Notes under the pieces: generated by a model
Database searches by the model: none
Seen by the model: only the letters and a program-made list of their open reading frames with translations
What the model was told of the DNA's origin: nothing
Part shown: positions 9,077 to 31,005 of the stretch, in pieces
Layout: each line of letters opens with the position of its first letter
Position numbering within the stretch: the stretch's first letter is position 1
Program-made: the position numbers and the translations under genes
IMG/VR virus record: IMGVR_UViG_3300044454_000105
Span: 1-41,164 of that record
Source of the DNA: a virus
Lineage: Duplodnaviria > Caudoviricetes
DNA: 41,164 bases
Strand: one strand, 5' to 3'

Positions 9077-9107
9077 GGCCTATCTATCCACCGAAAGGAC
9101 ATTAGGG

Positions 9108-9659: not shown

Positions 9660-9781
9660 AGCTGTACGCCAACCCGCCGCGCCTGTCTGCCCTGGTGACG
9701 GTGGCGCTGATCTGGTCATTTGGGTTCATGGCGGGGGTGCTGTTCGTGGGCGTGGTGCTGCTGTTGGGGAGGGTGTCATGA
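9638..9781 (+). CDS. 47-aa membrane protein (not in the ORF track)
   Basis: MIDDFRHELYANPPRLSALVTVALIWSFGFMAGVLFVGVVLLLGRVS; GTGA and ATGA overlaps on either side. Confidence 0.65.
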   Translation: MIDDFRHELYANPPRLSALVTVALIWSFGFMAGVLFVGVVLLLGRVS

Positions 9782-9978
9782 ATCACCCTATGCGTATAAC
9801 CGAATTGAGTGGAGTAGGGGGCTGCTACCAGCGCATCGCTGACCTGCGCCACCGCATTTACTACGATACGATGCTCGATGCGCTGGCGCTGGTGGATATG
9901 ATGAAAAAGACCCGGCTGAACAACGGCGCAAAAGCGTGCGGAATGTGGTCAAACCAGGTGTTTGTAGGAAGAAATTAG
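9778..9978 (+). CDS. Hypothetical protein
   Basis: 66 aa; GGAGG RBS; coupled. Confidence 0.5.
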   Translation: MNHPMRITELSGVGGCYQRIADLRHRIYYDTMLDALALVDMMKKTRLNNGAKACGMWSNQVFVGRN

Positions 9979-10002
9979 GCACAATATAACACTATTTATC
10001 AT

Positions 10003-11770: not shown

Positions 11771-11782
11771 GAGTGCTTAGAC

Positions 11783-13258
11783 ATGGGACTAATTGACAAT
11801 ATCAACGCATGGCTGAAATCTCGTATCGTGGGCTGGCTGGAAGGTGGCAACGACCCCACCTACGGAGACCGCTCGCAAAGCATGGCGAGCAGGCGCTATT
11901 ACCGCCTGGGCGCACAAAAGCGATTCCTGCGCCGTTCTCGTGAAGGCTACGATGATAACGTGGTGGGCAACTTCCTGGGCCTGGCCCTGGACCGGGGCAT
12001 CTCGCTTCTGTTCGGCAAGGAAATCGAGTTTGAGTGGGAAGAAGGCGTTGATGATGCCACCGTTGAATATATTGATGACATCTGGGAAGCTAACAATAAG
12101 CCCATCCTGTTACACAAACTTGCCATGTACGGCGGGGAAGATGGGACGGTGTTTGTCAAGTTAGTCCCCGATGAAGAGAAGGGCTGGCGCATTATTGCCC
12201 AAGACCCAATCTTCAAAGACATCCTGACCGACCCGGATGATGACGAAAAGGTGATCCGCTACGTCACCCAGTACAAGACCAGGGACATCGACGGGGAAGA
12301 AGTCGCCAAGCGGGAAACGATATTGGCGGGCAACTATGAAGACCTGACCCAACCGCTCACGCATTGGCTCATTCGCAACGAAATCAACAGCCGCAGCACG
12401 GGCGGTAAGTGGGTCATCGTGAGCGAGAACGTATGGCCCTACGTGCAAGCGCCGCTCATCCATTGGCAGAATCTGCCGATGGTGGGCACGGCCTGGGGGA
12501 TGCCTGATATTGCCGATGATGTGATCGAGCTTCAGGATAAGAGCAACTTTGCCATCTCCAACGTCAATCGGATTATTCGCCTGTTCGCCCATCCCTTCCG
12601 CTGGTCGCGTGGGTTTGGCGGGGCAAAAGTGGCAGGTGCAGCCAACGCAGAGATGGATACCGGGCCTGACAAGATGCCCAACGTGGATAGCCCAACTGCC
12701 GAAGTCAACCAGCTCCCGCCCGTGGGAGATGTGCCGGGGGCGGTGGGGCATGCACAAAACTTGCGCCAGATTATCTTTGACACCACCCGAAACACCGATA
12801 TCAGCAGCATGAAAGATAAAGTCGGAGCCTTGACCAACTTCGGCTTGCGGATTTTGTTCTATGATGCGCTGCAAAAGCTGGAAACCAAGCGCAACCTATA
12901 CGCATGGGGCATACGGGAAATCAACCGGCGCATCCTGATATTCTCGAATATGGAGCCGAAAGATTGCACGATCACGTGGAAAGACCCCTTGCCCGTGGAT
13001 GAGACGGCCTTGCGTACCAACCTGGAAGCGGATATGAGGATGGGCGTGGTGAGCAAAGAGACCATAGCCAAGCGGCTTGGCTATGATTGGGAGAAGGAAG
13101 AGAAGCTCATCGAAGAACAGCAGCAGGCAACGGATAATGTCGGGGCGCAGATATTGCGCGCTTTTGACCGCACAGGCGGGGCAATGAATGAACGCATGGG
13201 AGGGAACCAACCGAATGAGCGAATGCAGAATAAACAGCCGGCCAATCTTCGTACATGA
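11783..13258 (+). CDS. Portal protein (SPP1-like)
   Basis: 491 aa after TerL; G.PDIADDVIELQD, LTNFGLRILF and SKET..KRLG patterns. Confidence 0.88.
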   Translation: MGLIDNINAWLKSRIVGWLEGGNDPTYGDRSQSMASRRYYRLGAQKRFLRRSREGYDDNVVGNFLGLALDRGISLLFGKEIEFEWEEGVDDATVEYIDDIWEANNKPILLHKLAMYGGEDGTVFVKLVPDEEKGWRIIAQDPIFKDILTDPDDDEKVIRYVTQYKTRDIDGEEVAKRETILAGNYEDLTQPLTHWLIRNEINSRSTGGKWVIVSENVWPYVQAPLIHWQNLPMVGTAWGMPDIADDVIELQDKSNFAISNVNRIIRLFAHPFRWSRGFGGAKVAGAANAEMDTGPDKMPNVDSPTAEVNQLPPVGDVPGAVGHAQNLRQIIFDTTRNTDISSMKDKVGALTNFGLRILFYDALQKLETKRNLYAWGIREINRRILIFSNMEPKDCTITWKDPLPVDETALRTNLEADMRMGVVSKETIAKRLGYDWEKEEKLIEEQQQATDNVGAQILRAFDRTGGAMNERMGGNQPNERMQNKQPANLRT

Positions 13259-13769
13259 TTCGTCCAGGCTCACTCTAGCCAGGCTGTTTGCACAGATGGG
13301 CTATACCCGCGGCGTGGAAATCGGCACGGGCGGCGGCGTGTATGCGGAAGTGTTGTGCCGGAATATCCCAGGCTTGCGGCTGGTATGCGTAGACCTGTGG
13401 CGGCCCTACGATGGGTATATCGATTACACCAGTGTGGATTATCTGGAGCAGGACTACCGGCGCGCACAAGAGTTGTTAGCGCCCTGGTGTGTTGAGTTAA
13501 TCCGTAAAGAGAGCATGGATGCCCTGACAATATTTCAAGATGGGGAGTTTGATTTCTGCTACATCGATGCCAACCACCGCTCGCCCTGGGTAGACAACGA
13601 TATCTACTGGTGGTCCAAGAAGGTTCGCAGCGGTGGTATTGTCTCAGGGCACGATTATTCCAGGGAACATCTTGACGTAATGCAGGCGGTGGAACGATTA
13701 GCACCGGGAGATTTCTATGTGACGAGTACGACATCGGAGATTCCGTCCTGGTATTGGGGGAAACGATGA
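13215..13769 (+). CDS. Class I SAM-dependent methyltransferase
   Basis: VEIGTGGG, FDFCYIDANH, GGIVSGHDY. Confidence 0.88.
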   Translation: MSECRINSRPIFVHDSSRLTLARLFAQMGYTRGVEIGTGGGVYAEVLCRNIPGLRLVCVDLWRPYDGYIDYTSVDYLEQDYRRAQELLAPWCVELIRKESMDALTIFQDGEFDFCYIDANHRSPWVDNDIYWWSKKVRSGGIVSGHDYSREHLDVMQAVERLAPGDFYVTSTTSEIPSWYWGKR

Positions 13770-14695
13770 CCTGGCAGGACATCCCCGTCTTTGTCACCGG
13801 CGGTACTGGCTTTGTGGGCCAATACCTGATTCGCCACCTGCTTCATTCGGGGGCGTGCGTAACCGCTCTGGTGCGGGATGATGTGCTTACCCCCCTCCCC
13901 TGCCCTATCAACCGCATTCACGGAGATGTATGCAACCAAAAGCTGATCGAGCGCGTACTCAACGAATACAACATATCGACCGTGTTTCACCTGGCAGCGC
14001 AGGCAGATGTCACGTTTGCCAATGAGCATCCATCAAATACCTATGAGACGAATATCCTTGGCACGGTCTCCGTACTGGACGCCGTGCGGCGCATCAAGCC
14101 TGAGGCGATGGTGGTTATTGCCTCATCGGACAAAGCGTATGGGGATGCAGATACCCTACCCTACACGGAGGAAACGCCGCTGGTAGGGCGCAACCCGTAT
14201 GACTGCTCTAAGTCATGCGCGGACCTGGTGGCGCTGTCCTATCTCCATTCCTTCAACATGCGTATTGCCATTACCCGCTGTGGCAACATCTACGGCGGGG
14301 GCGATACCGACTGGAAGCGGCTGGTCCCTAATACGATTAGGCGCATCGTGCGCGGGCAGACGCCCGTTGTGTACGGCTATGGGGATGAGACACGGGATTT
14401 CTTCTATGTGGAAGACGTGGTAAACGCCTATCTCACTCTTGCCGAGAAAGACGCCCGCGGGCCGTACAATTTCAGCATGGGCCAACAGATCAGCGTGAGG
14501 GAGATGATTGAGACCATCTGTATATTGATGGATGAGCCGTGCCAGATTACGGCGCTTAACAATCCAAGGGGCATGATTAAGCACCAATGGCTGAACAGCA
14601 CGCGGGCGCGGGTGGAGTTGGGCTGGAAGCCGCTGTATACCCTGGAAGAAGGGCTGGCAGAGACAATCAAGTGGTATCGGGAGTATTTGGGATGA
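13766..14695 (+). CDS. rfbG: NDP-glucose 4,6-dehydratase, CDP-glucose 4,6-dehydratase-like SDR
   Basis: GGTGFVG, VFHLAAQ, SSDKAY, PYDCSKS (YxxxK), RCGNIYGGGD..RLVP. Confidence 0.8.
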   Translation: MTWQDIPVFVTGGTGFVGQYLIRHLLHSGACVTALVRDDVLTPLPCPINRIHGDVCNQKLIERVLNEYNISTVFHLAAQADVTFANEHPSNTYETNILGTVSVLDAVRRIKPEAMVVIASSDKAYGDADTLPYTEETPLVGRNPYDCSKSCADLVALSYLHSFNMRIAITRCGNIYGGGDTDWKRLVPNTIRRIVRGQTPVVYGYGDETRDFFYVEDVVNAYLTLAEKDARGPYNFSMGQQISVREMIETICILMDEPCQITALNNPRGMIKHQWLNSTRARVELGWKPLYTLEEGLAETIKWYREYLG

Positions 14696-15870
14696 ACGTC
14701 CCCGTACACGGCCGCATCGTGGGCGAGGAAGAGCGCGCCAATCTGTACGCGGTGGCGGATAGCGATTGGTACACCGCTGGCCCGTGGTGCGCTAAGTTTG
14801 AGAAGAAGCTGCGCGAATATTTAGGCGTGCGGCATGTGACCTTGTGCAATTCGGGTTCATCTGCCAACTTATTAGCGGTGTCTGCCCTGGAGCTAGAGCC
14901 AGGGGATGAAGTCATTACCACGGCGGTCAATTTCCCGACTACCGTCAATCCTATTCTCCAGGTGGGCGCTATCCCCGTCTTTATCGATGTCACCCTGCCG
15001 CACATGGTAGCAGACGCAAGCCAGTTGGAAGCGGCGCTATCGGACAAGACAAAAGCGGTCGTGCTGGCGCATACCCTGGGCTATCCGTTTGATGTGGCGG
15101 CGGTGGTGGATTTCTGCAAGGAATACAGCCTGTATTTAGTCGAAGATTGCTGTGATGCGTTAGGGAGTGAATATGATGGAGAGCGTGTCGGATCATGCGG
15201 GATTTTCTCAACCTACTCTTTCTATCCTGCCCACCAGATTACCACCGGAGAAGGGGGCGCAGTTGCTACGAGCCATCCTAGGCTGGATAAACTCGCTCGA
15301 TCTTACCGAGATTGGGGCCGTGATTGCTGGTGTGAACCCGGACACGACGATACATGTGGGCGAAGATGGTCAGGTGACTATGACCATAAATATACGTATT
15401 CGCATATAGGCTACAACCTGAAAATGGATGAGTTCGGCGGTGCAATAGGCGCGGCGCAAATGGATAGGCTACCTGAGTTTGTAGAAAAGCGCCGCCATAA
15501 CCACGCCTATCTTCTGCAACTGGCACAAGCGCAGGGATTACAGGATTATTTTGATTTGCCATTCCCTGAACCGTTCTACAACCCATCCTGGTTCGGCTTC
15601 TCCCTTATCAGCCGCGGCGAAGTGAACAGGAATGACATCTGCCGGTATCTCGATAGCGTCGGCGTGGGCAACCGGCCGGTGTTCGGCGGGAATCTCTTGC
15701 GGCAGCCCGCTTATGCCCACATCCCCCACCGCACCATCGGCAACCTTTATAACAGTAACGTGGTACATAACAATGCCTTTTGGATCGGCTGCTGGCCCGG
15801 TCTGGATGACCGCCAGTTGGAATATGCTATCGAAATGATTGTGAAATATATTGGGAGGGAACATGGATAA
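14692..15870 (+). CDS. rfbH: CDP-4-keto-6-deoxyglucose 3-dehydrase (E1/DdhC), DegT family
   Basis: NSGSSANLLA, EDCCDALG, SFYPAHQITTGEGG (His in place of the PLP Lys), GRDCWC..TC Fe-S cysteines, YDHKYTYSHIGYNLK. Confidence 0.9.
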   Translation: MNVPVHGRIVGEEERANLYAVADSDWYTAGPWCAKFEKKLREYLGVRHVTLCNSGSSANLLAVSALELEPGDEVITTAVNFPTTVNPILQVGAIPVFIDVTLPHMVADASQLEAALSDKTKAVVLAHTLGYPFDVAAVVDFCKEYSLYLVEDCCDALGSEYDGERVGSCGIFSTYSFYPAHQITTGEGGAVATSHPRLDKLARSYRDWGRDCWCEPGHDDTCGRRWSGDYDHKYTYSHIGYNLKMDEFGGAIGAAQMDRLPEFVEKRRHNHAYLLQLAQAQGLQDYFDLPFPEPFYNPSWFGFSLISRGEVNRNDICRYLDSVGVGNRPVFGGNLLRQPAYAHIPHRTIGNLYNSNVVHNNAFWIGCWPGLDDRQLEYAIEMIVKYIGREHG

Positions 15871-16600
15871 CGTCTTGATTACGGGGGGGTCGGGCTTCAT
15901 CGGTCATTGGCTGCAAGAGCGGCCCTTCGGCATGTGCGTGAGCCTGACCCACTACTTGTATGACCACTCAGAATGGATGGATGCCAAATGGCGCTATATC
16001 ATCCACCTGGCCCCCGTGCCCGTGGATGATGTGATCACCTGCGCCCGGCGCTCGAATGCCCATATCCTGTACGCATCCTCCGGCGGCGTGTATGACCGGG
16101 AGCCGGATGAGTATTTCCGCATGAAGCTGGAAGATGAGAAGAAGCTCTTGGCATCTGGTTTGAACGTCAAGATTGCCCGTATCTTCACCACCTGCGGGGC
16201 GCGGATGAAATGGGAGCGTTACGCCATTGGCAACTTTATCAAGCAGGCGGAGCGGGGCGGCCCGATCAACGTCCAATCCTACGGGCTGGTCGTGCGCTCG
16301 TACATGTACGGGTCAGACCTGGCAGAGTGGTTGTGGTGCATCTTATTAGATGGCAAGCCGGGCAGCGTGTATAACGTAGGTTCGGATGTGCCCCACTCCA
16401 CGCAAGAGTTAGCCTGGGAGATTGCCGGGCATTACGAACCCAAGCCGCAAATCAACATCATCCGCAAGATGGAGAACGAAGCGCGCCCATTTTACGTGCC
16501 GGATACCCGGCGCGCTGAGGATGAGTTGGGGCTGTCTATCAAAGTGCCGTTTGAGGATGCGATCAAGCGCACCGTGGAGGATTACCGCAATGAGAGATAA
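15863..16600 (+). CDS. NAD-dependent epimerase/dehydratase/reductase (compact SDR)
   Basis: LITGGSGFIG, YASSGGVY, YFRMK (YxxxK), RSYMY, VYNVGS. Confidence 0.85.
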   Translation: MDNVLITGGSGFIGHWLQERPFGMCVSLTHYLYDHSEWMDAKWRYIIHLAPVPVDDVITCARRSNAHILYASSGGVYDREPDEYFRMKLEDEKKLLASGLNVKIARIFTTCGARMKWERYAIGNFIKQAERGGPINVQSYGLVVRSYMYGSDLAEWLWCILLDGKPGSVYNVGSDVPHSTQELAWEIAGHYEPKPQINIIRKMENEARPFYVPDTRRAEDELGLSIKVPFEDAIKRTVEDYRNER

Positions 16601-17603
16601 ATGCCCCCTGTGCGGTAGTACCCGCCGCCTGGACGATTGGAAGATGGCATTCCTTGTGCCGGACGGCTGGCCCAACCCGACCACCAATACTATCTGTCTC
16701 TGCCTGGATTGCGGTTTGGTCTACTACGATAACGACATGACCCAGGCGGATTATGATGAGTATTATCGCAAATATTACGGCTATGATGGGAATGAGCATA
16801 GCATCAATAACGAGATTCGACTAGACGAGATTGCAGATCTGGCCGCCCAACATGCCGAAAAGGAAGATCTGATCGTAGACTTCGGTGGTGGTAATGGTTA
16901 TTTGGCAAATCGATTGCATCTTATGGGATACCGCGCTCAATCGGTCGAAGTCGGGCAGGCGTTACCCAAGAATATCGACCTGCTCATCTCTGCCCAAACC
17001 TTAGAACACCTGTACGACCTGCGCCCGATTGTCGATATGCTGGTGGCTGCGCTATCCTACAAAGGCAAGCTGCTGATCGAAGTGCCGAACTGCCTACGCA
17101 TGGCGAATATCACCACCATGCCCATTCTCGATTACCATCAGAAGCATGTCAACCACTTCACGCCGCAGACGCTAGATCGCCTGTTTGCGCTGTACGGCTT
17201 TGCGCCTGAGTACATCCATATTGGCGAGACTCCCTGCTATTTCGGGCAGCACTACCGGGCGCTGTATACCCGTCACCTACAGGAAGTGAATTACAAGCAG
17301 GCCATGATGACGGTGCATGACCGGGTAGAGAACAAGATTGCCAAGATGCGCCACATTGACGGCCCGGTGATTGTGTGGGGCTGCGGCGACCTGTGCTTGC
17401 ACATGCTGACCAAGGTTGACCTGGATATCGCCTATTACGTGGATAACGACCCGGCTTTCAAGGGTGCGACCATTGGCGGCAAGCCGGTAAGGGAGTTTGT
17501 CACCAACACGTACCCAATTGTGGTGATTGCCCAAAATCAGGCATCGGGGATACTCAAGCGCATCAAAGAAAGCCATTTGCCCAATGAGGTAATTGTCCTA
17601 TGA
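16590..17603 (+). CDS. Zn-binding class I methyltransferase (sugar methyltransferase-like)
   Basis: CPLC..CLDC N-terminus, VDFGGGNG, LEHL, IEVP, HVNHFT, C-terminal VIVWGCG. Confidence 0.82.
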   Translation: MRDKCPLCGSTRRLDDWKMAFLVPDGWPNPTTNTICLCLDCGLVYYDNDMTQADYDEYYRKYYGYDGNEHSINNEIRLDEIADLAAQHAEKEDLIVDFGGGNGYLANRLHLMGYRAQSVEVGQALPKNIDLLISAQTLEHLYDLRPIVDMLVAALSYKGKLLIEVPNCLRMANITTMPILDYHQKHVNHFTPQTLDRLFALYGFAPEYIHIGETPCYFGQHYRALYTRHLQEVNYKQAMMTVHDRVENKIAKMRHIDGPVIVWGCGDLCLHMLTKVDLDIAYYVDNDPAFKGATIGGKPVREFVTNTYPIVVIAQNQASGILKRIKESHLPNEVIVL

Positions 17604-18622
17604 GCCAACAAATCAAAGGTGTAACCCTGCGCAACCGGGACCGCGCCCCCTTGCACTCTATCGCACCATTGGATCACCCGCTGGTAATCTACCTGGAACC
17701 GACCAACGTGTGCAACTTCCGCTGCGTGTTCTGCCCGACTGGGGATACGAAGCTGGTCAAGCAGCACCGACCCGTGGGCATGATGGATTGGGAGTTGTGG
17801 AAAAAAGTCATCGACGATTTCAAGGCATTCGATAAGCCTGCTGAAAATGCCCATCTGTTCAAAGACGGCGAAAGCACCATCCACCCCCGCTTTCTGGATA
17901 TGCTGGGCTACGTGCGTGATAGCGGCATCGTCAAGAAGCTGTGGATCAAGACCAACGGCTCGAAGCTTTCCCCGGAATACAACGAAGGGCTGATCGCCAA
18001 CGGCCTGGATAACATCGGGATCTCTGTGGAGCACGTGCATGTCGAAGGCTATCTGGAACGCTCCAAGGTCCATTTTGATTACGAAAAGCTGAGGGAAAAC
18101 GTAGCAGATTTGTACCAGCGCCGCCGTACGTGCAAGGTCTACGTCAAAATCCCCTACCAGGGCTTGACGGAAGAGGAGATCGCCAAGTTCTACGCCGACT
18201 TCACCGACCGCTGCGACTACATTGGCGTGGAGAAGTATCACGGTTGGTCAACGCCTGAGCTGGCAGATTTTACCCTTGGGTATAACGTGAGTGATACCTA
18301 TGACGGCGACCCAAAGACCGACAAGATTGTCTGCCCCTGGACGCTGTTTGAGTTCACCGTCAACTGGAACGGGGCGGTATCCATGTGCCCGGAAGATTGG
18401 GCCTGGAAAACGATTGTGGGGGATGTCTCGAAAGAGCGCATCATCGATATTTGGAACGGGGAACGCATGTTTGCATTCAGGAAGATGCACCTGGAAGGGC
18501 GCAGGCGTGACAACATCGCTTGCCGTGGGTGCGATTTCATGAAGACGTTACCCGACAACGTTGACCCGTGGAGGGCGGAGATATTGGAGCGATATGAGCA
18601 ACGAATGTCTAATCATCGCTGA
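17600..18622 (+). CDS. Radical SAM enzyme with SPASM/twitch domain
   Basis: CNFRCVFC (CxxxCxxC); C-terminal CPW..G.VSMC.ED..GD..C..C. Confidence 0.92.
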   Translation: MSQQIKGVTLRNRDRAPLHSIAPLDHPLVIYLEPTNVCNFRCVFCPTGDTKLVKQHRPVGMMDWELWKKVIDDFKAFDKPAENAHLFKDGESTIHPRFLDMLGYVRDSGIVKKLWIKTNGSKLSPEYNEGLIANGLDNIGISVEHVHVEGYLERSKVHFDYEKLRENVADLYQRRRTCKVYVKIPYQGLTEEEIAKFYADFTDRCDYIGVEKYHGWSTPELADFTLGYNVSDTYDGDPKTDKIVCPWTLFEFTVNWNGAVSMCPEDWAWKTIVGDVSKERIIDIWNGERMFAFRKMHLEGRRRDNIACRGCDFMKTLPDNVDPWRAEILERYEQRMSNHR

Positions 18623-19430
18623 GATTGGCATCAACCATAACGGCAGCCTGGACACGGCCCTACAACTGATTGCCGCCGCCAAAGACGCCGGGTGCAATGC
18701 GGTGAAATTTCAAAAGCGCACCGTGGAATTGTGCTACACGGCGGAAGAACTTGCCCGCCCGCGAGAATCTATCTTTGGTCATACCAATGGCGACCTGAAG
18801 CGCGGGTTAGAGTTTGGCTATGAACAATACGCAGCAATTGACAATTACTGCCAGTCAATCGGGATGCTGTGGTTCGCTTCCTGTTGGGATGTGCCTGCGG
18901 TGGGGTTTATCGACCAATTTCACCCGCCCTATTTCAAGATTGCGTCGGCCTGCCTGACAGATGACCATCTCTTGCGGGCGGTGCGTGCCACCGATAAGCC
19001 CATCATCCTATCTACGGGCATGAGTACGCTTGCGGATATCGATCATGCCATTGACGTATTGGGACGCAATCGCTTGACCTTGCTCCATTGCGTAGCCACC
19101 TACCCGGCGTACAACGATGAACTCAATCTCAGGTGCATCCAGACTCTACGGGAGACCTACGGCCTGCCCGTGGGCTATTCCGGGCATGAGTTGGGGCTGG
19201 CATCCACCGTGGCGGCTGTGGCGCTGGGGGCGTGCATGGTGGAAAGGCATATCACCCTATCGCGGGAAATGTGGGGGTCTGACCAAGCCGCCAGCCTGGA
19301 GCCGCACGAACTGAAAGAGTTGGTGCGGGATATCCGCTTTGTGGAAAGCGCGATGGGTGACGGCGTGAAGCGAGTGATGGAAAGGGAAGTACCTGTCATG
19401 AAGAAGCTGAGGAGGGCGTATGCGCTGTAG
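18594..19430 (+). CDS. neuB: N-acetylneuraminate/nonulosonate synthase family, short form
   Basis: IIAEIGINHNG, AVKFQKR, KIASA, LSTGMS, GYSGHE, VERHITL. Confidence 0.92.
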   Translation: MSNECLIIAEIGINHNGSLDTALQLIAAAKDAGCNAVKFQKRTVELCYTAEELARPRESIFGHTNGDLKRGLEFGYEQYAAIDNYCQSIGMLWFASCWDVPAVGFIDQFHPPYFKIASACLTDDHLLRAVRATDKPIILSTGMSTLADIDHAIDVLGRNRLTLLHCVATYPAYNDELNLRCIQTLRETYGLPVGYSGHELGLASTVAAVALGACMVERHITLSREMWGSDQAASLEPHELKELVRDIRFVESAMGDGVKRVMEREVPVMKKLRRAYAL

Positions 19431-19923
19431 TGATGCCATTTGGGAGATTGTGAGCGAGTACTGCGATACCGTGTTCTTCGTGCCCGGCGGGCAGGCGGCG
19501 TTCCTGGTAGACAGCCTGGGGCAATCGGGCCTAAAGCATATCTCCATGCTCCATGAGCAAGGCGCTGGCTTTGCGGCGTGCGGCTATGCTCAGGCAACGG
19601 GCAAGCTGGGCGTATGCCTGACCACCAGCGGCCCCGGTGCGACGAATGCCATTACCCCCTGCTGGGCAGCCTGGGCGGATAGCATCCCGGTTCTGTTTAT
19701 CTCAGGGCAAGCCAACCTGAACCCAAATGAAGATTTGCGGGTAAGGGGAGTGCAAAGCGTGGATATTATCAGCATCGTGAAGCCGATTACGAAATGGGCG
19801 CACCAGGTCAGGCCGAATGAAATCATCGCCAGTATGACTACCGTCATCGTCGATGCATTTCAGGGCCGTCATGGTCCCTGCTGGTTGGATATCCCTTTGA
19901 GCGTCCAGGCGGAGGAGATATGA
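19420..19923 (+). CDS. ThDP-dependent enzyme (ALS/YerE-like), N-terminal PYR domain
   Basis: HEQGAGFAACGYA, TTSGPGATNA, WLDIPLSVQ. Confidence 0.88.
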   Translation: MRCSDAIWEIVSEYCDTVFFVPGGQAAFLVDSLGQSGLKHISMLHEQGAGFAACGYAQATGKLGVCLTTSGPGATNAITPCWAAWADSIPVLFISGQANLNPNEDLRVRGVQSVDIISIVKPITKWAHQVRPNEIIASMTTVIVDAFQGRHGPCWLDIPLSVQAEEI

Positions 19924-19924
19924 G

Positions 19925-20116
19925 ATGCTATCAAACGAAGAAATGGTTATGAATAGACTATATAGATATGAGTTTCCTGACGATGAAGGGTGTATTTTCT
20001 ACTGGTTGCTTGATGATAAGTATTGGTCTTTTATGGCTTTTGCAAAGGATGGTACGGGAAGTGCTGAACTTTTGAAGACTATGATAAACGCCTTCAACCA
20101 AGGCACTCAAGTATGA
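19925..20116 (+). CDS. Small AT-rich inserted hypothetical protein
   Basis: 63 aa; visibly lower GC than its neighbours; GGAGG RBS; TATGA on both flanks. Confidence 0.6.
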   Translation: MLSNEEMVMNRLYRYEFPDDEGCIFYWLLDDKYWSFMAFAKDGTGSAELLKTMINAFNQGTQV

Positions 20117-21186
20117 ACCGCCCTGTAATCCTGATTGGAAATGGCTTACGCAGCAACCCGGCGCTTTTGGAGTCTTTGGGAAGAATGAATATCCCCATCC
20201 TGACAACCTGGATGGCAGCCGATCTCATCCCTGAAGAACACCCCGCCTTTTGCGGGCGGCCTGGCATCCTTGGACAGCGCGCCGCCAATATCATCCAGCA
20301 AAAGGCGACCCAATTGTTCGTTTACGGTGCAAGGCTGGATGAGCAGCAGGTGTGCTACCGATATGACAACTTTGCCCCTCACGCCGCCCGCTATCTTTAC
20401 GAGATTGACCCGGAGGAGATTCATAAGCTTGGGGATGCTTTCAAGAGCATGGCGATTGCGCCTATCATCGACGATAACCCCGACTGGCTCAACTGGTGTA
20501 AGGCGCTGTACCACCAGATGCGCCCTGAGCTGGAAGGCGTAGAAGATATCGGATGGGTAGACCCGTTCCATTTTGTCTCTGCCCTATCCGACTACGCCGA
20601 ACCGGATGACATCATTATCGCCGGGGCGGGCAAGGCGGGCGAAACGTTGATGCAGGCGTTCAAAGTCAAGGCGGGGCAACGGCTCCTGACCATGAGTACA
20701 TCCGGCGCGATGGGCTATGACATCCCGCTATCCATTGGGGCTTGCATGGGTACGGGGCGGCGTGTGCTGTGCGTGACGGGTGATGGTGGCTTTCAACTCA
20801 ATATTCAGGAGTTGGAAGTCATCCGGCGGCTGAAGCTGCCGATCCAATTTTTCGTTCACTCCAACAATGGCTACGGCTCGATTCGCGCCATGCAGCGCAC
20901 CCGCTTCGATGGGCGGGTGGTGGGGGCGGACCCGGAAAGCGGCTTTACTATCCCGCGCCTGGCAGAGATTGCCGAGTGCTACGGGCTGGATTACCAATGT
21001 ATCCAATCACTAGACTCTCCCGTGGAGTTCACCGGGCAGTTGATTGAATTGATGGTTGACCCGGATTACCAGCAATATCCACGGGTGGCAACATCGCTTG
21101 TGGATGGGAAATGGGTACAGGATGATATGCAAAATATGATGCCCAAGATACCCGACCTGGATGAGTTGATGAGGTGGAATGGATGA
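20113..21186 (+). CDS. ThDP-dependent enzyme, central and C-terminal (PP) domains
   Basis: RPVILIGNG, GRPGILGQRAAN, GAMGY, GDGG..NIQEL..NNGY ThDP motif. Confidence 0.9.
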   Translation: MNRPVILIGNGLRSNPALLESLGRMNIPILTTWMAADLIPEEHPAFCGRPGILGQRAANIIQQKATQLFVYGARLDEQQVCYRYDNFAPHAARYLYEIDPEEIHKLGDAFKSMAIAPIIDDNPDWLNWCKALYHQMRPELEGVEDIGWVDPFHFVSALSDYAEPDDIIIAGAGKAGETLMQAFKVKAGQRLLTMSTSGAMGYDIPLSIGACMGTGRRVLCVTGDGGFQLNIQELEVIRRLKLPIQFFVHSNNGYGSIRAMQRTRFDGRVVGADPESGFTIPRLAEIAECYGLDYQCIQSLDSPVEFTGQLIELMVDPDYQQYPRVATSLVDGKWVQDDMQNMMPKIPDLDELMRWNG

Positions 21187-22202
21187 CCGAACCAACGCAG
21201 AATGAGATCATCCGCATCGTGGAGCAGTACCGGGCCGCGCTTGCCCGCCGGGACGCGGCGGCGCTCAGCCGCCTGACAGATGCCTATCAGCGCCTATACG
21301 GGCGGCTGAAAGATAAGATTGACCTGTTGGTAGTTGAGTTGGAGAAAGGCCCGTTGACCCAGGGGCAGTTGACCCGCATGGCACGTTACAAATCGCTCAT
21401 GAGCCAGATTGAGACAGAGTTGACCGATTATCAGGTCATCTTGCGAAATGAGATATCCGTGGTGAGTTCCCAGGCGATTGCCAACGCCGGGCAGGACGCG
21501 GCAAAGCTGGCGCGCATCCTGGCCGGCACATCTGGGGTAAATGTCATGTGGAACAGGCTCCCCGCGGATGCAATCAAGGCGCTGCTAGGGTTCTTATCCG
21601 AGGATGGGCCGTTATACGCACGCATCCAACAACTCGCCGGGGTGAATGCAGAGAAGGTGGCACAAGCCATCATAGAAGGCGTGGGCCTGGGCAAGGGGCC
21701 ACGGGAGATTGCCGGTCTCATCCGTGACAGCCTGGGCGGGGGGTTATCGGATGCGTTGCGTATGACACGCACGGTACAGTTGTGGTCATATCGAGAATCT
21801 ACCCGTGCCAACTATCTCAACAATAGCGATGTGGTGCAAGGCTGGATTTGGTATGCGGATTTAGCAGGTGATCCGTGCATGGCTTGCATCGCTCAGCACG
21901 GCACAATCCACGGGCTGGATGAGATTTTGGACGATCATTACAACGGCAGATGCGCCATGATCCCGATTGTGCCGGGGATGGATAACCCCGTCGAGCAGGG
22001 CGGCGAAGATTGGTTCTCGCAACTGCCGGAAGCCAAGCAGCGCGAGTTGATGGGACCGGAAAAGTACATCGCCTGGAAAGGGGGAGCGTTTGACTTCTCC
22101 GCCCTGGCGGGTAAGCATAACGATAGCGTGTACGGCGACATGACCATCGAAACACCGCTGTGGGAGTTGTTGGGCGTGGAGCCACCCACAAGGACACAAT
22201 AA
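21183..22202 (+). CDS. Minor head morphogenesis protein (MuF/SPP1 gp7-like)
   Basis: RMTRT, W.W...PCMACIAQHG..HYNGRC. Confidence 0.88.
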   Translation: MTEPTQNEIIRIVEQYRAALARRDAAALSRLTDAYQRLYGRLKDKIDLLVVELEKGPLTQGQLTRMARYKSLMSQIETELTDYQVILRNEISVVSSQAIANAGQDAAKLARILAGTSGVNVMWNRLPADAIKALLGFLSEDGPLYARIQQLAGVNAEKVAQAIIEGVGLGKGPREIAGLIRDSLGGGLSDALRMTRTVQLWSYRESTRANYLNNSDVVQGWIWYADLAGDPCMACIAQHGTIHGLDEILDDHYNGRCAMIPIVPGMDNPVEQGGEDWFSQLPEAKQRELMGPEKYIAWKGGAFDFSALAGKHNDSVYGDMTIETPLWELLGVEPPTRTQ

Positions 22203-22387
22203 TGCACATCATCACCACCGGAACTATTACAACACCTTGCACAGATGCGAGCATGTTGCAATCTATAGAAAGTTATGCTACACTCGATAACAGAACGCGG
22301 ATGCTACTCATGACCTTGCGCCGCGCGCTGATCATGGTGCTGGCTGCCTTGGAAGATTATCTCCAAATGGAGCGCAGCATCAAATAA
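22202..22387 (+). CDS. Small hypothetical protein
   Basis: TAATG coupling with the MuF stop; AAGGA RBS. Confidence 0.5.
   Translation: MHIITTGTITTPCTDASMLQSIESYATLDNRTRMLLMTLRRALIMVLAALEDYLQMERSIK
22256..22284 (+). promoter_or_regulatory. Putative promoter for scaffold and capsid genes
   Basis: TTGCAA-17-TACACT with TGn. Confidence 0.45.
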
Positions 22388-22439
22388 CAAAACGCCCGCG
22401 CCATTTGGCCCCGGCAAAACCGACGAACCGCCGCTTATG

Positions 22440-22470
22440 CGCCCGTTCCGAAAATGGAACGGGCGTTTTG
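22440..22470 (+). terminator. Intrinsic terminator-like hairpin with an alternative pairing partner upstream
   Basis: CGCCCGTTCC-gaaaat-GGAACGGGCG-TTTT. Confidence 0.65.
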
Positions 22471-22495
22471 CATTTTAACCACAGGAGATGACGAG

Positions 22496-23074
22496 ATGTC
22501 AGAACCAGTACAACCCGAAGCGGTAGTCCAGGTGACAGCCGCCCAAACCCCGGAAGCTGAGACAGTCGAGGGGGAAAAGTACGACGCCGCCCGCGCAATG
22601 GCTTTGATTGAGAAGTTGCGCGCAGAAATCAAGGAACTCAAACCCAAAGCAAAACAGGCCGAAGAGTTGAGCCAGGCAGAGCAGAAACGCAAGGAGGCCG
22701 AGATGACCGAAATGCAAAAGCTCCAGGCGCAGCTTGAAAAAGCTAATGCCGACCTGAAAGCCACAAGGCTATCGGACCTCCGGCGCCAGGCCGCCATTGA
22801 CGCGGGTTTGCCCCTTGCGTTTGCCGATAGGCTCAAAGGTGAGACGCCCGATGAGTTGAAGGATGACGCAAAAAAGCTGCTGGCAGCCATACCAGCACCC
22901 AAGCCGCCAAACCTGAGCGCGACTAATCCCGGCGCTGGCGCAAGCCAGGGGGAAACACCCGCACAAGCGTTGGCGAGAATCCACGGTCAGAGTGTCAATA
23001 TTTTCGATCCCCGCTGGGTGAAAGAACATGGCGGTGGGGTCGTTATCAAGGACAATCTGACCGCTAAGGAGTAA
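22496..23074 (+). CDS. Capsid scaffolding protein
   Basis: Coiled coil; A..AGLP..FADRLKGETPDELKDDAKKL; AGGAG RBS; precedes the capsid gene. Confidence 0.85.
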   Translation: MSEPVQPEAVVQVTAAQTPEAETVEGEKYDAARAMALIEKLRAEIKELKPKAKQAEELSQAEQKRKEAEMTEMQKLQAQLEKANADLKATRLSDLRRQAAIDAGLPLAFADRLKGETPDELKDDAKKLLAAIPAPKPPNLSATNPGAGASQGETPAQALARIHGQSVNIFDPRWVKEHGGGVVIKDNLTAKE

Positions 23075-23079
23075 TTAAT

Positions 23080-23922
23080 ATGCCTCCCAATACTGAAGCC
23101 GACATCGCAACCTTTATTAACACGGTGTGGGCGGATGCTTTACTGGTTGCTCGCGAAAATCAAGTTATGACACCACTCGTTACCACGTTTGGTGATCGGC
23201 AAGGATTAGCCGTACGCAAAAACGCAAAATACGGCACGATCGTGTTCAACCAGATTGCAGAAACCGATGATCTAACATCGCAGTCTCTTACCCCCTCAGT
23301 AGATCAGACCTTAACGCCGTATGAATACGGCGCTCAAGTCTTCATGACCGATAGCCGAATCGAAACCGATATTTATTCATATCGGGAAGATTGTATGCAG
23401 GAGTTCGGCGCGGCTTATGGTCAGAAACTTGATAGTTACCTGGCTGGTCTATTCTCCAGTTTCACTGGGGGTACAGTCGGTGGAACAACCACCAATATGA
23501 CCTGGGCCACCTTCTTGGCTGCTCGTACCAAGATGCAGAGGGCGCTAGCCCCCCAACCCTGGCGTTGTGTTTTGACACCTGAGCAATACATGTGCCTCGG
23601 CACAGCGATTGCTCCTGGTGTTACCGTAACCAACGCCCCAGAGCTTCAGGATGAGTTTATTCGCCGGTACTATGTAAATACCATTGGCGGAGTCGATATT
23701 TTTGTCGATGGGAATATTACCGCAGCCGCAACTGTAGCCGGTGGCATGTTCAGCCCCAATGCAATTGCACTCGATATGCGCCGCCCGCTCAGGATCGAGC
23801 CAGATCGAGATCCGTCAAAACGGGGTGTCGAGTTGAATGCCTCATCCGTTTATGCGTACGGCGTTTGGAGACCACAGTACGGCGTGGTTATCCTAACCGC
23901 TGGTACTGCTCCAGTAGCGTAA
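23080..23922 (+). CDS. Major capsid protein (HK97 fold)
   Basis: 280 aa after the scaffold; strong RBS; IEPDRD..ELNASSVYAYGVWRP C-terminal pattern. Confidence 0.88.
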   Translation: MPPNTEADIATFINTVWADALLVARENQVMTPLVTTFGDRQGLAVRKNAKYGTIVFNQIAETDDLTSQSLTPSVDQTLTPYEYGAQVFMTDSRIETDIYSYREDCMQEFGAAYGQKLDSYLAGLFSSFTGGTVGGTTTNMTWATFLAARTKMQRALAPQPWRCVLTPEQYMCLGTAIAPGVTVTNAPELQDEFIRRYYVNTIGGVDIFVDGNITAAATVAGGMFSPNAIALDMRRPLRIEPDRDPSKRGVELNASSVYAYGVWRPQYGVVILTAGTAPVA

Positions 23923-23935
23923 GGGAGAGAATAAT

Positions 23936-24346
23936 ATGTCTCAACTAGATGGTTTGAACGCAAGCATCACGATCCCCCTGGGCGCTGGCACAGTAAGCGC
24001 AGGCACATCCATCAGCTTGATCATGTCTATCCCTGGAACGCTTTACGGCGGCGGTATCACCATCAAGAAAATCTGGTACTGCGCCAATAAAGCGGTTGCC
24101 GCGGGTTCGGCTCCCTCGCTTGCAATCCTGGGGCTGACTTCCGCCGGCGGGACCGCTGCCACCTACAGCACGAATGGATCTGCTGCGCTGACTGCCGGTA
24201 CTCCCATCGCCGGGACGATTGACACCGCTTGGGTTCCTGGAACGGTATCGTTCCTGGGACTCAAGTACGGGCATGAGAACCTGGCTGCATCCAGCACCCA
24301 ACTGACCTGTAACATCGTATACGCCATCGGGCGCGGCAGCGCTTAA
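23936..24346 (+). CDS. Putative capsid decoration protein (Gly/Ala/Ser/Thr-rich)
   Basis: 136 aa, beta-rich, directly after the capsid gene. Confidence 0.6.
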   Translation: MSQLDGLNASITIPLGAGTVSAGTSISLIMSIPGTLYGGGITIKKIWYCANKAVAAGSAPSLAILGLTSAGGTAATYSTNGSAALTAGTPIAGTIDTAWVPGTVSFLGLKYGHENLAASSTQLTCNIVYAIGRGSA

Positions 24347-24367
24347 TGGTGTGCCACTAATGGTAAA

Positions 24368-24448
24368 AACGCCGGGCTTGGGCCTGCATCCCTCCGCAGG
24401 CCGACAAGGGGCTGCCGCACCCCGCCCGGCGTTGTGCGGCGGGAGGGA
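24368..24448 (+). ncRNA. Three-way-junction RNA element upstream of the glycosyltransferase
   Basis: 10-bp closing stem, two internal hairpins, loops complementary to the downstream RBS region. Confidence 0.5.
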
Positions 24449-24452
24449 ATGA

Positions 24453-25592
24453 ATGCGTATCATGTGGCTTTCTAACGCCCCGTGGTCGCCCAGCGGCTAT
24501 GGGCAGCAGTCGGGAATATTTCTCCCCCGGCTGGCAGACCTGGGGCACACAATGGCGGTAACGTGCTTTTATGGGTTGGAAGGCGGGCAAGTCAACTTCG
24601 GTAAATTTATCTGCTTTCCTAAAGGTGGTCATCCCTATGGCAACGACATCGCATGGCAGAACGCAAAGATCGGGTTCGGCGCGGATATCATGATTTCCTT
24701 GATGGACACTTGGGTAATGAACCCGGAAGAATATCCGCCCGGCTTCCGCTGGGTTCCGTGGTATCCGGTAGATTCTGACCCCATGCCGCCGATTATCAGG
24801 GGTAAATTGTCGCTTGCCCACAAGCGCATCTCGATCAGTATGCACGGGGTCAAGATGACGCACAACGCCGGGCTGGACTGCTATTACATCCCGCACGGGA
24901 TTGAAACCAAGCTGTTCAAGCCGATGGACAAGAAAGAGAGCCGGGCAAAGTTGGGACTGCCTCAGGATAAATACGTGGTAGGAACCGTGGCGATGAACAA
25001 AGGCAACCCTAGCCGGAAGTGCTTGGCAGAGATGATGGAAGCCTTTGCGCGTTTTCACAGGCGACACCCGGACAGCCTGTATCTGTTGCAATCCGGCACG
25101 GGCGAGAACCAAATGGATTTGGTCAACCTGCCGGAGCTGGCGCGCGTCCTGGGCTTGCAAGTTGGGGTGGATGTGATCTTTCCCGATCAGTACGCGCTCT
25201 TCCTGGGCTTCCCGCAAGACATGATCGCCACCGTCTATAACTGTATGGATGTGCATCTCATCACCACGCGCGGCGAAGGGTTTGGCATCCCGATTTTGGA
25301 AGCGCAGGCTTGCGGCGTGCCGGTCATCACCGGCGACTGGACGGCATGCAAAGAATTGTTTTGGGCCGGGCAGCTCCTTGACAAGGAGAAAGACGCAGAG
25401 CGCGAGTACACCGGGCTTGCCAGCTACAACTTCCGCCCGCATATCAGCGCCATTGACGCGGCGCTTGAAGAAGAATACCGGAACCCATCCGATACCCAAT
25501 GGGCGGTGGAATGCGCTAGGAACTACGATGCTGATCTCGTCACCGAGAAATACTGGAAACCCACCCTGGCAGAAATCGAGGCGTCGCTATGA
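24453..25592 (+). CDS. GT-B glycosyltransferase (GT4-like)
   Basis: MRIMWLSNAP..SGYG, IPHGIET, EGFGIPILEAQACGVPVI (Ex7E). Confidence 0.92.
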   Translation: MRIMWLSNAPWSPSGYGQQSGIFLPRLADLGHTMAVTCFYGLEGGQVNFGKFICFPKGGHPYGNDIAWQNAKIGFGADIMISLMDTWVMNPEEYPPGFRWVPWYPVDSDPMPPIIRGKLSLAHKRISISMHGVKMTHNAGLDCYYIPHGIETKLFKPMDKKESRAKLGLPQDKYVVGTVAMNKGNPSRKCLAEMMEAFARFHRRHPDSLYLLQSGTGENQMDLVNLPELARVLGLQVGVDVIFPDQYALFLGFPQDMIATVYNCMDVHLITTRGEGFGIPILEAQACGVPVITGDWTACKELFWAGQLLDKEKDAEREYTGLASYNFRPHISAIDAALEEEYRNPSDTQWAVECARNYDADLVTEKYWKPTLAEIEASL

Positions 25593-26248
25593 AGCCGAAG
25601 CCGAAAGACGCCGTAATCTTGCAACAGGGCTGGCCCGAAGCCGGGCCGTTTGCCGATATGATGCGCCTGACCTACCAGCGCCACGCCGCCTATGCAATGG
25701 CGCACGGGATGGAATACTGGGCGGTCAACGCCTTTATCCAGCCTGACCTATGGCCCGGCGGGTGGGGCAAGATATGGTTACTCCGCCAGTTATGTGATCA
25801 GCATTACGAGCATATCTTTTGGGTGGATGCAGACGCAGCCATTATGGATATGGAATGTGACCTGAGAAGCGCCCTGCCGGAAGGCAAGCTGATCGGCGCA
25901 TGTGAACATTGGGCAGAGTGGTTCCCATCGCTGGATATCCCCCGCCATTACAACGTGGGGGTGTTGTACTTGCGGAACGACCCGCGCACGCGTGAATTCT
26001 TGGATGAGTGGTACGCTGCCTATCCGGGGCATCCCCGCTGGTTGGATCAGGGCAGCTTCAACGAAATGGTAACGGGCAAATATGCCAGTATCTTTGCCAG
26101 CCTGGACGCAAGATGGAACGCGACCTATCGGGTAAACGAGTGTGAAAGACCTTGTGTCCAGGCATGGCATGGAGTCATGCCGGAAGCCAAGCGCTTCGGC
26201 ATGATGTCAAATTTATTACGAGATGACTTCTTGAGATTTAGAGTATAG
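25589..26248 (+). CDS. GT-A glycosyltransferase (GMA12/MNN10, GT34-like)
   Basis: WGKI, FWVDADA (DxD), NVGVLYLRN, WLDQGSFN, RWNA. Confidence 0.8.
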   Translation: MKPKPKDAVILQQGWPEAGPFADMMRLTYQRHAAYAMAHGMEYWAVNAFIQPDLWPGGWGKIWLLRQLCDQHYEHIFWVDADAAIMDMECDLRSALPEGKLIGACEHWAEWFPSLDIPRHYNVGVLYLRNDPRTREFLDEWYAAYPGHPRWLDQGSFNEMVTGKYASIFASLDARWNATYRVNECERPCVQAWHGVMPEAKRFGMMSNLLRDDFLRFRV

Positions 26249-26257
26249 GAGTAGACA

Positions 26258-26635
26258 ATGGCTAAATGGGCTTACAACGGGATTGCAGATTACGGGCTGA
26301 ATGGTGGATTTCAACAGGTGGCAAATCGGGTTTGTATTGCCACAGCGCAGCCTGCGACTTATGCGAACTTTGGCGCGTATGCAGTCGGTACCCTGGCATG
26401 TGCAAGCGCGAACTTTACGCTTGGCACGGGTGACACCAACGGGCGAAAACTGACCTACGGCCCGGCTACCATCGTGGTCGGCACAACCGGCACAGTCACC
26501 AATATCTGTTTCGCAGCCACGACCGGGAGCGGTACGCTGGTCTTCGTGGGCACATGCGCCCCGACCGCCGTGACCGCCGCGGGTACGGTGGTTCTTGCGG
26601 CCTGGGATGTAGACGAGATCAACGACCCGACTTAG
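26258..26635 (+). CDS. Putative virion structural protein
   Basis: 125 aa Thr/Gly/Ala-rich; AGGAG RBS; within the head-neck module. Confidence 0.7.
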   Translation: MAKWAYNGIADYGLNGGFQQVANRVCIATAQPATYANFGAYAVGTLACASANFTLGTGDTNGRKLTYGPATIVVGTTGTVTNICFAATTGSGTLVFVGTCAPTAVTAAGTVVLAAWDVDEINDPT

Positions 26636-26641
26636 GCGAAT

Positions 26642-26947
26642 ATGGCAAAAGCAGTCGCAATGAGCATCGGGATACCGGGAACGGAAATCTCGATTAATTA
26701 CAACACTTCCAATCTGCGGATCACCTCCGTAGATTGGTCTATCCCGCAATCGGGGATTGTGGCGCGTGCGCGCATTTGGGACGATGGCAACCTGGTTTAT
26801 GACCGGACGGTCGCCGGTCCTGCTACCGGCAGTGAAAATGTTCCCGGTCAATATCGCGTGCGCCAGGTGACAGAAGATGGGCAGACTTTTTTTGACTTAC
26901 CCGCTAGTCTGACTTATACCATCAATGTAGAAACGATAGGCGGGTAG
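26642..26947 (+). CDS. Hypothetical protein, probably structural
   Basis: 101 aa, beta-rich, in the late operon. Confidence 0.65.
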   Translation: MAKAVAMSIGIPGTEISINYNTSNLRITSVDWSIPQSGIVARARIWDDGNLVYDRTVAGPATGSENVPGQYRVRQVTEDGQTFFDLPASLTYTINVETIGG

Positions 26948-26955
26948 GCGGGTAA

Positions 26956-30996: not shown

Positions 30997-31005
30997 GAGA
31001 TAACA

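Follow-up and report, generated by a model that had tools for sequence, protein, structure and literature searches.

The window analysed here is the whole of IMG/VR record IMGVR_UViG_3300044454_000105, a complete virus record of 41,164 nt from a siphovirus-like phage. Its head module holds an island of sugar-biosynthesis genes between the portal and MuF genes and, behind the capsid gene, two glycosyltransferase (GT) genes. The best-supported reading, on comparative grounds, is that the phage O-glycosylates its own virion and caps the short glycan with a branched sugar from the island; it is a prediction from the genes, and we give it a probability of roughly 60%. The reading is favored because a GT4-family transferase is fixed behind the capsid and cement-like genes, the island is linked to a GT34-like transferase, the same logic recurs in a second capsid lineage, the enzymes are soluble, and Gly-Thr dipeptides are enriched in the outer proteins only. 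In the cytoplasm, during assembly, GT4 would prime the threonines of Gly-Thr with a host sugar and GT34 would add the branched sugar. Attachment of a sugar to the particle had been proposed in the initial annotation; the fixed position of GT4 and the island–GT34 link give it comparative support, as a prediction from sequence.

A sugar-biosynthesis island in the head module

The island (13215–21186; all window genes given with coordinates are on the plus strand unless stated otherwise) is 7,972 nt in length, or 19.4% of the window. It contains nine enzyme open reading frames (ORFs) and one AT-rich 63-residue ORF. On the left it is flanked by an SPP1-type portal gene (11783–13258; PF05133, E 5e-20), which overlaps the first island gene by 44 nt; on the right, the gene of a MuF-like minor head protein (21183–22202; phrog_115, E 3e-14) is joined through an ATGA overlap. 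From portal to MuF, 10 of 11 junctions overlap by 4–44 nt and one is a 1-nt gap. The initial annotation had described the enzyme ORFs at these places, a size of about 8 kb or a fifth of the genome, and overlapping start and stop codons at almost all junctions, all of which were recovered. It had missed the AT-rich ORF (19925–20116; GC 0.38; no Pfam, PHROG or NCBIfam match), which lies between the two pieces of a thiamine diphosphate (ThDP) enzyme gene.

The GC content (0.52–0.58) and third-position GC (GC3, 0.60–0.76) of the island agree with those of the structural genes. One public contig, 39,986 nt in length, covers positions 9000–28500 at a flat depth of 19.4 without any joint; because it may come from the source sample, it is not an independent confirmation. 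The portal, island and MuF junctions are kept in relatives with 35–75% portal identity, and since such divergent relatives share them, an assembly chimera, which the initial annotation had named as a possible flaw, is excluded. Every island gene compared with four relatives, both ThDP pieces included, has a nonsynonymous divergence (dN) of 0.09–0.54 with a synonymous divergence (dS) above 1 or saturated. These values indicate purifying selection on all island genes, and we regard the island as old, phage-adapted and maintained. Promoter-like sites are at chance level (12 versus 13.4 expected), and an island promoter was rejected on that count. No membrane-spanning stretch was found in the island or GT proteins, the maximum hydropathy being 1.57.

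The RfbG/DdhB-like nucleoside diphosphate (NDP)-glucose 4,6-dehydratase (13766–14695; PF16363, E 5e-60; motifs GGTGFVG, SSDKAY and YDCSK) would dehydrate host CDP-glucose or another NDP-glucose at C4/C6. Compared with its rfbG-like counterparts, it shows 43–49% identity for the majority of the cellular clusters. Its nucleotide is not fixed, because it falls under the cut-offs of both the RfbG and the RmlB models (TIGR02622, 182 bits; TIGR01181, 197 bits); the presence of RfbF in 2 of the 11 related islands listed points to CDP. RfbH/DdhC (14692–15870; NF011936, 502.6 bits, cut-off 423), an NDP-4-keto-6-deoxyglucose 3-dehydrase (E1), would remove the C3 hydroxyl, with a host reductant replacing E3. 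In E1 enzymes a histidine replaces the aminotransferase lysine, and cysteines bind the iron-sulfur center. In the alignment with PDB 3bcx (E 1e-118), the histidine (PAH, in PAHQI) and the cysteines (CCD, in EDCCD, and CWC, in DCWC) are conserved, and by its family score and these residues we classify the island RfbH as a true E1.

The YerE-like ThDP enzyme is encoded in two pieces, one with the PYR domain (19420–19923; PF02776) and one with the middle and PP domains (20113–21186; PF00205, PF02775). All three domains, the catalytic glutamate (kept in HEQ) and the GDG...NN motif are present across the two pieces. The best PDB match is 5ahk for the PYR piece (E 2e-30; 109 versus 92 bits for acetohydroxyacid synthase, AHAS) and 8rph for the other (151 versus 96 bits), and all NCBIfam AHAS models are far below cut-off. 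We take 8rph to be JanthE and 5ahk to be PpYerE. JanthE and PpYerE are YerE-like enzymes with solved structures (PMC12247030, whose available text gives no PDB codes). The pieces would reassemble and add an acyl branch at C4, from pyruvate or from a longer, NeuB-made keto acid.

The branch would be reduced by the extended short-chain dehydrogenase/reductase (SDR; 15863–16600; PF01370, E 2e-13; YxxxK kept), which adjoins RfbH and the ThDP enzyme in most related loci and, from this context, is a candidate YerF-like side-chain reductase. Tailoring of the sugar would be left to two methyltransferases and a radical S-adenosylmethionine (SAM)/SPASM enzyme. The accessory class I SAM methyltransferase (Methyltransf_24; 13215–13769; PF13578, E 6e-15) occurs in close relatives only and likely O-methylates the glycan. 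The Zn-finger class I methyltransferase (16590–17603; PF13489, E 2e-9; CPLC and CLDC motifs) is frequent but optional. The radical SAM/SPASM enzyme (17600–18622; PF04055, PF13186), also optional, is 75–89% identical in relatives.

Deoxy-keto-sugar genes together with a ThDP enzyme and a reductase are the published signature of acyl-branched sugars and lead to yersiniose, erwiniose, caryophyllose and gastriose (PMC9306805). We infer that the island product is a C4-acyl-branched 3,6-dideoxyhexose of the yersiniose/erwiniose type. This YerE-like enzyme is present in 54 of 80 viral RfbH loci, and 5 more carry a transketolase-like pair. Two cellular clusters in the likely host phylum (L223 and L224) have the order rfbF-rfbG-rfbH-SDR-methyltransferase-ThDP-neuB-GT2, with the Zn-finger methyltransferase in the same slot as in the island.

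In 71 phage rows (some contigs counted twice), the ThDP gene is split in 58, whole in 8 and present as one piece only in 5. The splits occur only at two domain linkers, the one that follows the PYR domain, the one that follows the middle domain, or both together. At the split sites the stop and start often overlap, and a homing endonuclease or NeuB sometimes occupies the gap. In cells, each of the 5 complete copies is a single chain. Because both pieces are under selection, they likely reassemble into one enzyme.

The NeuB-family protein is a short, SAF-less, phosphoenolpyruvate-dependent synthase (18594–19430; PF03102, E 4e-79). It is optional and absent from most islands. That it supplies a long 2-keto-acid donor to the ThDP enzyme has near even odds. 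In this phage family neuB adjoins the ThDP gene or is separated from it by one gene, and once it stands between its two pieces (L007), and in some branched-sugar pathways neighboring aldolases supply longer keto-acid donors (PMC9306805). A CMP-synthetase or phosphatase motif lies within ∼1.5 kb of 11 of 16 cellular NeuB homologues and of 0 of 13 phage NeuB loci, which favors the donor role. Different from the nonulosonic acid pathway, which combines NeuB, NeuA and a transferase, the window has NeuB with no CMP-synthetase or sialyl-/Maf-type transferase found in it.

In a variant of the main explanation that differs at the ThDP branch step only, NeuB would make a second sugar, a Kdn-like ulosonic acid activated by a host CMP-synthetase, and the ThDP branch would come from pyruvate as in yersiniose. 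The 11 cellular homologues with nearby motifs and the many islands lacking neuB speak for this variant; the 0 of 13 phage loci, the missing sialyltransferase-like gene, the closeness to the ThDP gene and the published aldolase precedent speak against it, and we judge it somewhat short of even. Against the donor role, the window NeuB is just 28–30% identical to the NeuB beside ThDP genes in cells, and its cellular kin mostly adjoin CMP-synthetases.

Transferases behind the capsid gene and a candidate acceptor motif

On the capsid side, the scaffold gene (22496–23074; phrog_233, E 3e-16) is followed by those of the major capsid protein (23080–23922; PF25209, phrog_267), a candidate acceptor with 5 Gly-Thr, and of a 136-residue jelly-roll cement/decoration-like protein (23936–24346; model pLDDT 83.5), the main candidate acceptor with 7 Gly-Thr. 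Next come a soluble GT4-family (GT-B) transferase (24453–25592; PF00534, phrog_2170; EX7E motif) and a soluble GT34-like (GT-A) transferase (25589–26248; PF05637, 34 bits, cut-off 23), whose profile matches xyloglucan xylosyltransferases (E 9e-9). GT4 is predicted to be the priming enzyme and GT34 to attach the sugar from the island; the searches of the window gave no further transferase. Genes of accessory head/neck, adaptor, closure, neck, tail completion and major tail proteins follow (26258–31419), and several of these proteins are Gly-Thr-enriched candidate acceptors. The cement-like fold rests on Foldseek matches and their re-alignment. The best Foldseek match is the Pam1 capsid chain 7eel_H (TM 0.62), which has 140 residues, the same length as the annotated cement protein of Pam1. 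Upon re-alignment the model scored Z 8–9 to KHP40, BPP-1 and Pam1 chains, tied with unrelated jelly-rolls, and the ESM Atlas named no family for it.

Conservation was analyzed from the capsid side with an alignment search that returned 80 of 182 relatives. GT4 is located behind the capsid gene in 70 of the 70 loci that extend far enough past it. Of 95 capsid loci, 55 were too short, which left 40 in which both the island and GT34 were scoreable. Island and GT34 are both present in 18 and both absent in 22, with 0 discordant; after merging at 90% capsid identity, 18 loci (window included) have both and 20 have neither. On a quick capsid tree there are 6 state changes of the island, no fewer than 4 of which are forced, and the 22 island-less loci carry other second transferases. 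A GT34-first search gave 79 loci, including 34 scoreable family loci, 29 with the island and 5 without it. The perfect island–GT34 coupling seen in the capsid-first sample was thus broken by the GT34-first sample: in all cases seen the island implies GT34, and the reverse is not true. In one complete GT34 relative without the island (L275, 4035–5728), the interval from MuF to scaffold is occupied by an SDR and a likely oxidoreductase, and gene calling gave no cement-like gene.

The slot behind GT4 is variable in the family; it can hold GT2s, formyl-, acetyl-, methyl- or sulfotransferases, a galactopyranose mutase or GT4-FkbM fusions. Since it is hypervariable like a serotype locus, the glycan coat likely differs among the phages of the family. 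In island-less relatives (L136, 12831–13541; L126, 4882–5901; L108, 12523–14648; L110, L118, L122 and L152), varied genes were seen in this slot, namely a PF01973 protein, UDP-galactopyranose mutase, formyl- or sulfotransferase-like genes, or GT4-FkbM fusions.

This layout is family-wide, and the arrangement recurs in dozens of uncultured siphoviruses. The initial annotation had known of no comparable pathway in a 41-kb siphovirus and had suggested a synteny search; this search showed that the arrangement is not rare, and relatives lacking the island, which it had suggested looking for, do exist. A second lineage, with HK97-type portal and capsid, has the order portal, MuF-like gene, island, capsid, a 140–160-residue gene, one or two phrog_1574-like genes and adaptor. 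Its phrog_1574-like protein folds as a GT-A transferase, with A197 (PDB 2c0n) of Sulfolobus turreted icosahedral virus (STIV) as the top match; A197 is a small soluble GT-A enzyme of an archaeal tailless virus, with a proposed role in capsid glycosylation. In a FastTree analysis with a small cellular sample, the RfbH sequences of the two lineages interleave in two phage-only clades, with none of 11 cellular sequences inside, indicating that the island moved between capsid types yet stayed in the head module. In the HK97-capsid lineage the small post-capsid protein (for example L003, 13393–13833) is enriched in Ser-Gly (2.8-fold) and not in Gly-Thr; its gene neighbors a different transferase, and Ser-Gly is possibly another acceptor motif.

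Gly-Thr is the top-enriched dipeptide in the outer proteins of the window (62 versus 32.4 expected). In the shell proteins it also ranks first (27 versus 11.7), and in the non-virion proteins the count is 18 versus 24.3. The p-values for the window are post hoc, because the motif was first noticed by eye. Over 34 family loci the median enrichment is 2.1-fold (homologous sites in these family-wide counts are not independent). The enrichment is 1.5–2.8-fold in capsid, cement-like, adaptor, closure, neck, tail completion and tail tube proteins, and 0.3–1.0-fold in portal, MuF, scaffold, terminase, chaperone and tape measure proteins. The 46 cement-like proteins have 3–9 Gly-Thr each, spread over 29 alignment columns, and their enrichment is specific to threonine (2.16) and not serine (1.04). 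As controls, seven phages without this GT4 gave 0.90–1.41, Che8 gave 1.58, Pam1 has 9 versus 9.5 expected, and 19 capsid homologues from GT4-less elements have 33 versus 33.6 expected. By this sequence pattern, Gly-Thr is a candidate acceptor motif, a lead confined to one lineage.

Weighing the target of the island sugar

Several observations weigh against a virion carrying the island sugar. A terminator-like hairpin with a T-run (22439–22476, hairpin 22439–22466; first-listed match, 12 pairs; z −3.35 for 22375–22500) stands just 5′ of scaffold and separates portal, island and MuF from scaffold, capsid and the GTs; a similar hairpin occurs in 15 of 19 relatives, for which there is no shuffle control. 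Island and transferases may therefore be expressed at different levels. Of the single late structural transcript originally suggested, the coupling of portal, island and MuF holds, and the inclusion of capsid and GTs is uncertain. RfbF, E3 reductase and CMP-sugar synthetase were not found in the window by Pfam, PHROG, NCBIfam or motif scan, which obliges the host to provide both NDP-glucose and a reductant for E1; the earlier statement that the phage makes its own unusual sugar thus applies only to the late steps. Within the likely host phylum, just 16 of 401 genomes gave an RfbH match. The five GT34 loci without the island come from three phages, two of them complete, with no RfbH- or ThDP-family match, which means that GT34 can work without the island.

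The Gly-Thr enrichment is seen in one lineage only and could reflect a beta-turn preference. Phage L5 is also enriched (1.91), and the cultured phages phiPsal1, S-CBS4 and TJE1, which carry distant GT4 homologues, are not (0.72–0.89); Gly-Thr as a general mark of this GT4 family was therefore rejected. Moreover, in ∼23 podovirus-like loci RfbH and a ThDP or transketolase gene are found in the company of replication genes and of other GTs, so a virion target does not follow from the pathway by itself.

The podovirus-like loci are L015, L025, L028, L033–L036, L038–L040, L042–L049, L058, L059, L075, L078 and L079. Most of these phages have the LPD38 giant protein; they carry GT10, GT2, a phrog_1574 GT-A, RfbH and a YerE-like enzyme or transketolase-like pair, with the sugar genes among recombination or polymerase genes. 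Larger phages (L024, L031, L051–L054 and L076) have rfbF-rfbG-rmlC-rfbH, several GTs and methyl- or sulfotransferases, without the ThDP enzyme, in a block directly 5′ of the neck and tape-measure genes. In a further phage type (L006, 4493–15657), one block contains methyltransferase, radical SAM, split ThDP, rfbF, rfbG, rfbH, a NeuB-cupin fusion, SDR and GT4.

Conversion of the host surface is an unlikely alternative, in which the sugar would be placed on a host envelope glycan or S-layer to mask a receptor or exclude superinfection. Such sugars are known from cell-envelope glycans (PMC12247030), the clusters L223 and L224 have a near-identical gene order, and the genome encodes a cI-like repressor. 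However, no integrase was recognised in the window, the genes are fused into the packaging and head genes with promoter-like sites at chance level, and GT4 keeps its place behind the capsid gene in all 70 loci. GtrABC serotype conversion uses a membrane flippase, a bactoprenol transferase and an integral membrane GT; no such component, GtrAB-like or flippase, was matched in the window, and the island and GT proteins have no membrane segment.

We likewise assign a low probability to a scheme in which GT4 and GT34 glycosylate the virion with host sugars and the island sugar goes to another target or tops up the host pool, the two modules being linked by position and not by chemistry. The three phages with GT34 but without RfbH or ThDP, the hairpin between the modules and the pathway outside head modules in the podovirus-like loci are all compatible with it. 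Against it, all 18 scoreable island loci have GT34, the 22 island-less loci have other second transferases, the tree requires at least 4 changes, and the window offers no other transferase to use the sugar.

Hypermodification of phage DNA is less probable still. Sugar on the bases could protect against nucleases, perhaps being added during packaging beside portal and MuF, between which the island sits. GT4 has a weak, below-cut-off match to PF20706 (GT4-conflict), and in the podovirus-like lineage the genes that accompany the pathway are those for recombination and a polymerase. In DNA glycosylation of the T-even or TET type, the acceptor is supplied by a base hydroxymethylase or dioxygenase; neither of these, nor a DNA polymerase, was recognised in the window, although many of its small ORFs belong to no known family. 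The neighbors of the transferases are the cement-like and adaptor genes, and the Gly-Thr enrichment is limited to outer proteins. Finally, passenger DNA, either a captured host cluster in decay or an assembly chimera, could be suspected from the split of the ThDP gene around a foreign ORF and from the missing early pathway genes, but it was rejected as highly improbable given the purifying selection on every gene, the linker-only splits in 58 of 71 phage rows, the phage-like composition, the joint-free contig and the junctions shared with divergent relatives.

Known systems, host and significance

Mycobacteriophage virion glycosylation was reportedly studied by Freeman et al. in 2023. In Che8, Corndog and Myrna, phage GTs glycosylate the virion, with capsid and tail tube as targets (PMC11256854, PMC12363180). 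The window phage is alike in being a tailed phage with its own GTs (GT4 and GT34-like), its capsid and tail targets being predicted where those of the Che8 type are shown. It differs in that the GT4 and GT34 family profiles miss Che8 gp108–110 (best scores below 0 bits), and homology to the Che8 GTs was rejected. The Che8 GTs are at the right genome end with no sugar-synthesis genes annotated beside them, whereas those of the window are inside the head module. By analogy, the system likely works like mycobacteriophage virion glycosylation without belonging to it by enzyme family.

The island shares its clustered 4,6-dehydratase, E1, YerE-like ThDP enzyme and SDR with the pathways of CDP-yersiniose A (DdhA–D, YerE, YerF), erwiniose, caryophyllose and gastriose (PMC9306805, PMC12247030), as well as an aldol-type enzyme nearby as a possible donor source. 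Different from the CDP-yersiniose A cluster, it is phage-borne and no DdhA/RfbF cytidylyltransferase or DdhD/E3 was found in the window. CDP-yersiniose A uses pyruvate and has a two-carbon branch, whereas neuB next to the ThDP gene leaves a longer branch open here. Cellular branched-sugar pathways have a ThDP enzyme in one polypeptide, a pyruvate aldolase in place of a NeuB-type synthase, and the cell envelope as target; in the window the enzyme is in two polypeptides and the predicted target is the virion. Like the fibril clusters of Megavirinae (PMC10117803), the window encodes nucleotide-sugar pathways with transferases, rare bacterial-type sugars and clade-specific content; unlike these giant eukaryotic viruses with their amino sugars, it is a 41-kb bacteriophage that devotes roughly one fifth of its genome to a predicted branched dideoxy sugar.

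The window encodes a terminase, SPP1-type portal, MuF, scaffold, capsid, connectors, major tail protein and a 646-residue tape measure. No sheath match was found among its proteins (Pfam, PHROG), and with these head and tail genes we classify the phage as siphovirus-like. The one sequencing run listed as containing it is from a sediment metagenome, and no RNA run was listed. Chloroflexota is the probable phylum of the host: one family member is on a contig of a Chloroflexi metagenome-assembled genome, and Anaerolineae account for 3 of 6 NeuB homologues with an organism name. A cultured family member recorded from Microcystis makes this assignment tentative. When genome contigs were searched with the capsid for host prophages, one search gave none and another a single Chloroflexi contig; the remaining 23 capsid matches in the phylum belong to a different, GT4-less element. 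This distant capsid homologue is present in one copy each in 23 of 400 sampled genomes of the phylum of G001. In ten stretches read (L196–L205; genomes G180, G162, G072, G367, G024, G303, G343, G359, G311 and G036; GC 67–74%), it lies within a compact block of terminase, portal, capsid and tail genes that lacks GT4; the element may be domesticated or resemble a gene-transfer agent.

Two other features of the window were noticed. Its ends (40668–41164 joined to 1–178, minus strand) fuse in frame into a second, diverged copy of a 193-residue DAARAAA-repeat gene (200–781, minus strand); the gene is duplicated in tandem, or the assembly combines variants from two strains. A 667-residue protein (26956–28959) with many short QAQxSD-type repeats, found in close relatives only, is possibly a head or neck fiber.

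The cultured phages with a phrog_2170 GT4 are Mae-JY09, phiPsal1, S-CBS4 and TJE1, with GT4 in or near the head module. In Mae-JY09 (PP395641) the order is portal-MuF-scaffold-capsid-132-residue gene-GT4-second GT-SDR-adaptor; its GT4 is 45% identical, and Gly-Thr is 1.83-fold enriched. An RfbH/ThDP island is not annotated in the stretches read of these four phages. The S-CBS4 ‘galactosyl transferase’ gave no GT34 profile match and was not supported as a GT34 homologue, and a search for the major tail protein in cultured phages gave no match.

In the literature cited here, the tailed phages with glycosylated virions are mycobacteriophages, and the viruses that make rare sugars are giant eukaryotic ones (PMC11256854, PMC12363180, PMC10117803). 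Judged from titles and abstract starts, with subscription journals largely uncovered, we found no published description of a phage-made branched sugar on virions; the addition here is the link from pathway to transferase to particle, together with a cultured relative. A wider and more doubtful proposal is that this large environmental siphovirus family runs a serotype-like glycosylation of its surface, in which GT4 would prime a Gly-Thr sequon in all outer proteins, the hypervariable slot would extend the glycan, and the mobile island, exchanged between unrelated capsid types, would supply a new, long-branched dideoxy sugar through the two-piece ThDP enzyme and NeuB.

The analysis yields a predicted acceptor motif, a soluble priming transferase and a ThDP enzyme that is split by nature, accepts ketones and is of interest for biocatalysis, and Mae-JY09, with GT4 and no annotated island, makes the glycosylation core testable. 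If the glycosylated-virion reading is true, virome genes counted as auxiliary ‘LPS’ (lipopolysaccharide), ‘acetolactate synthase’ or ‘sialic acid’ metabolism would often serve the particle. Small environmental siphoviruses would then combine virion glycosylation with rare sugars of their own, and their variable coat could govern adhesion, decay and recognition.

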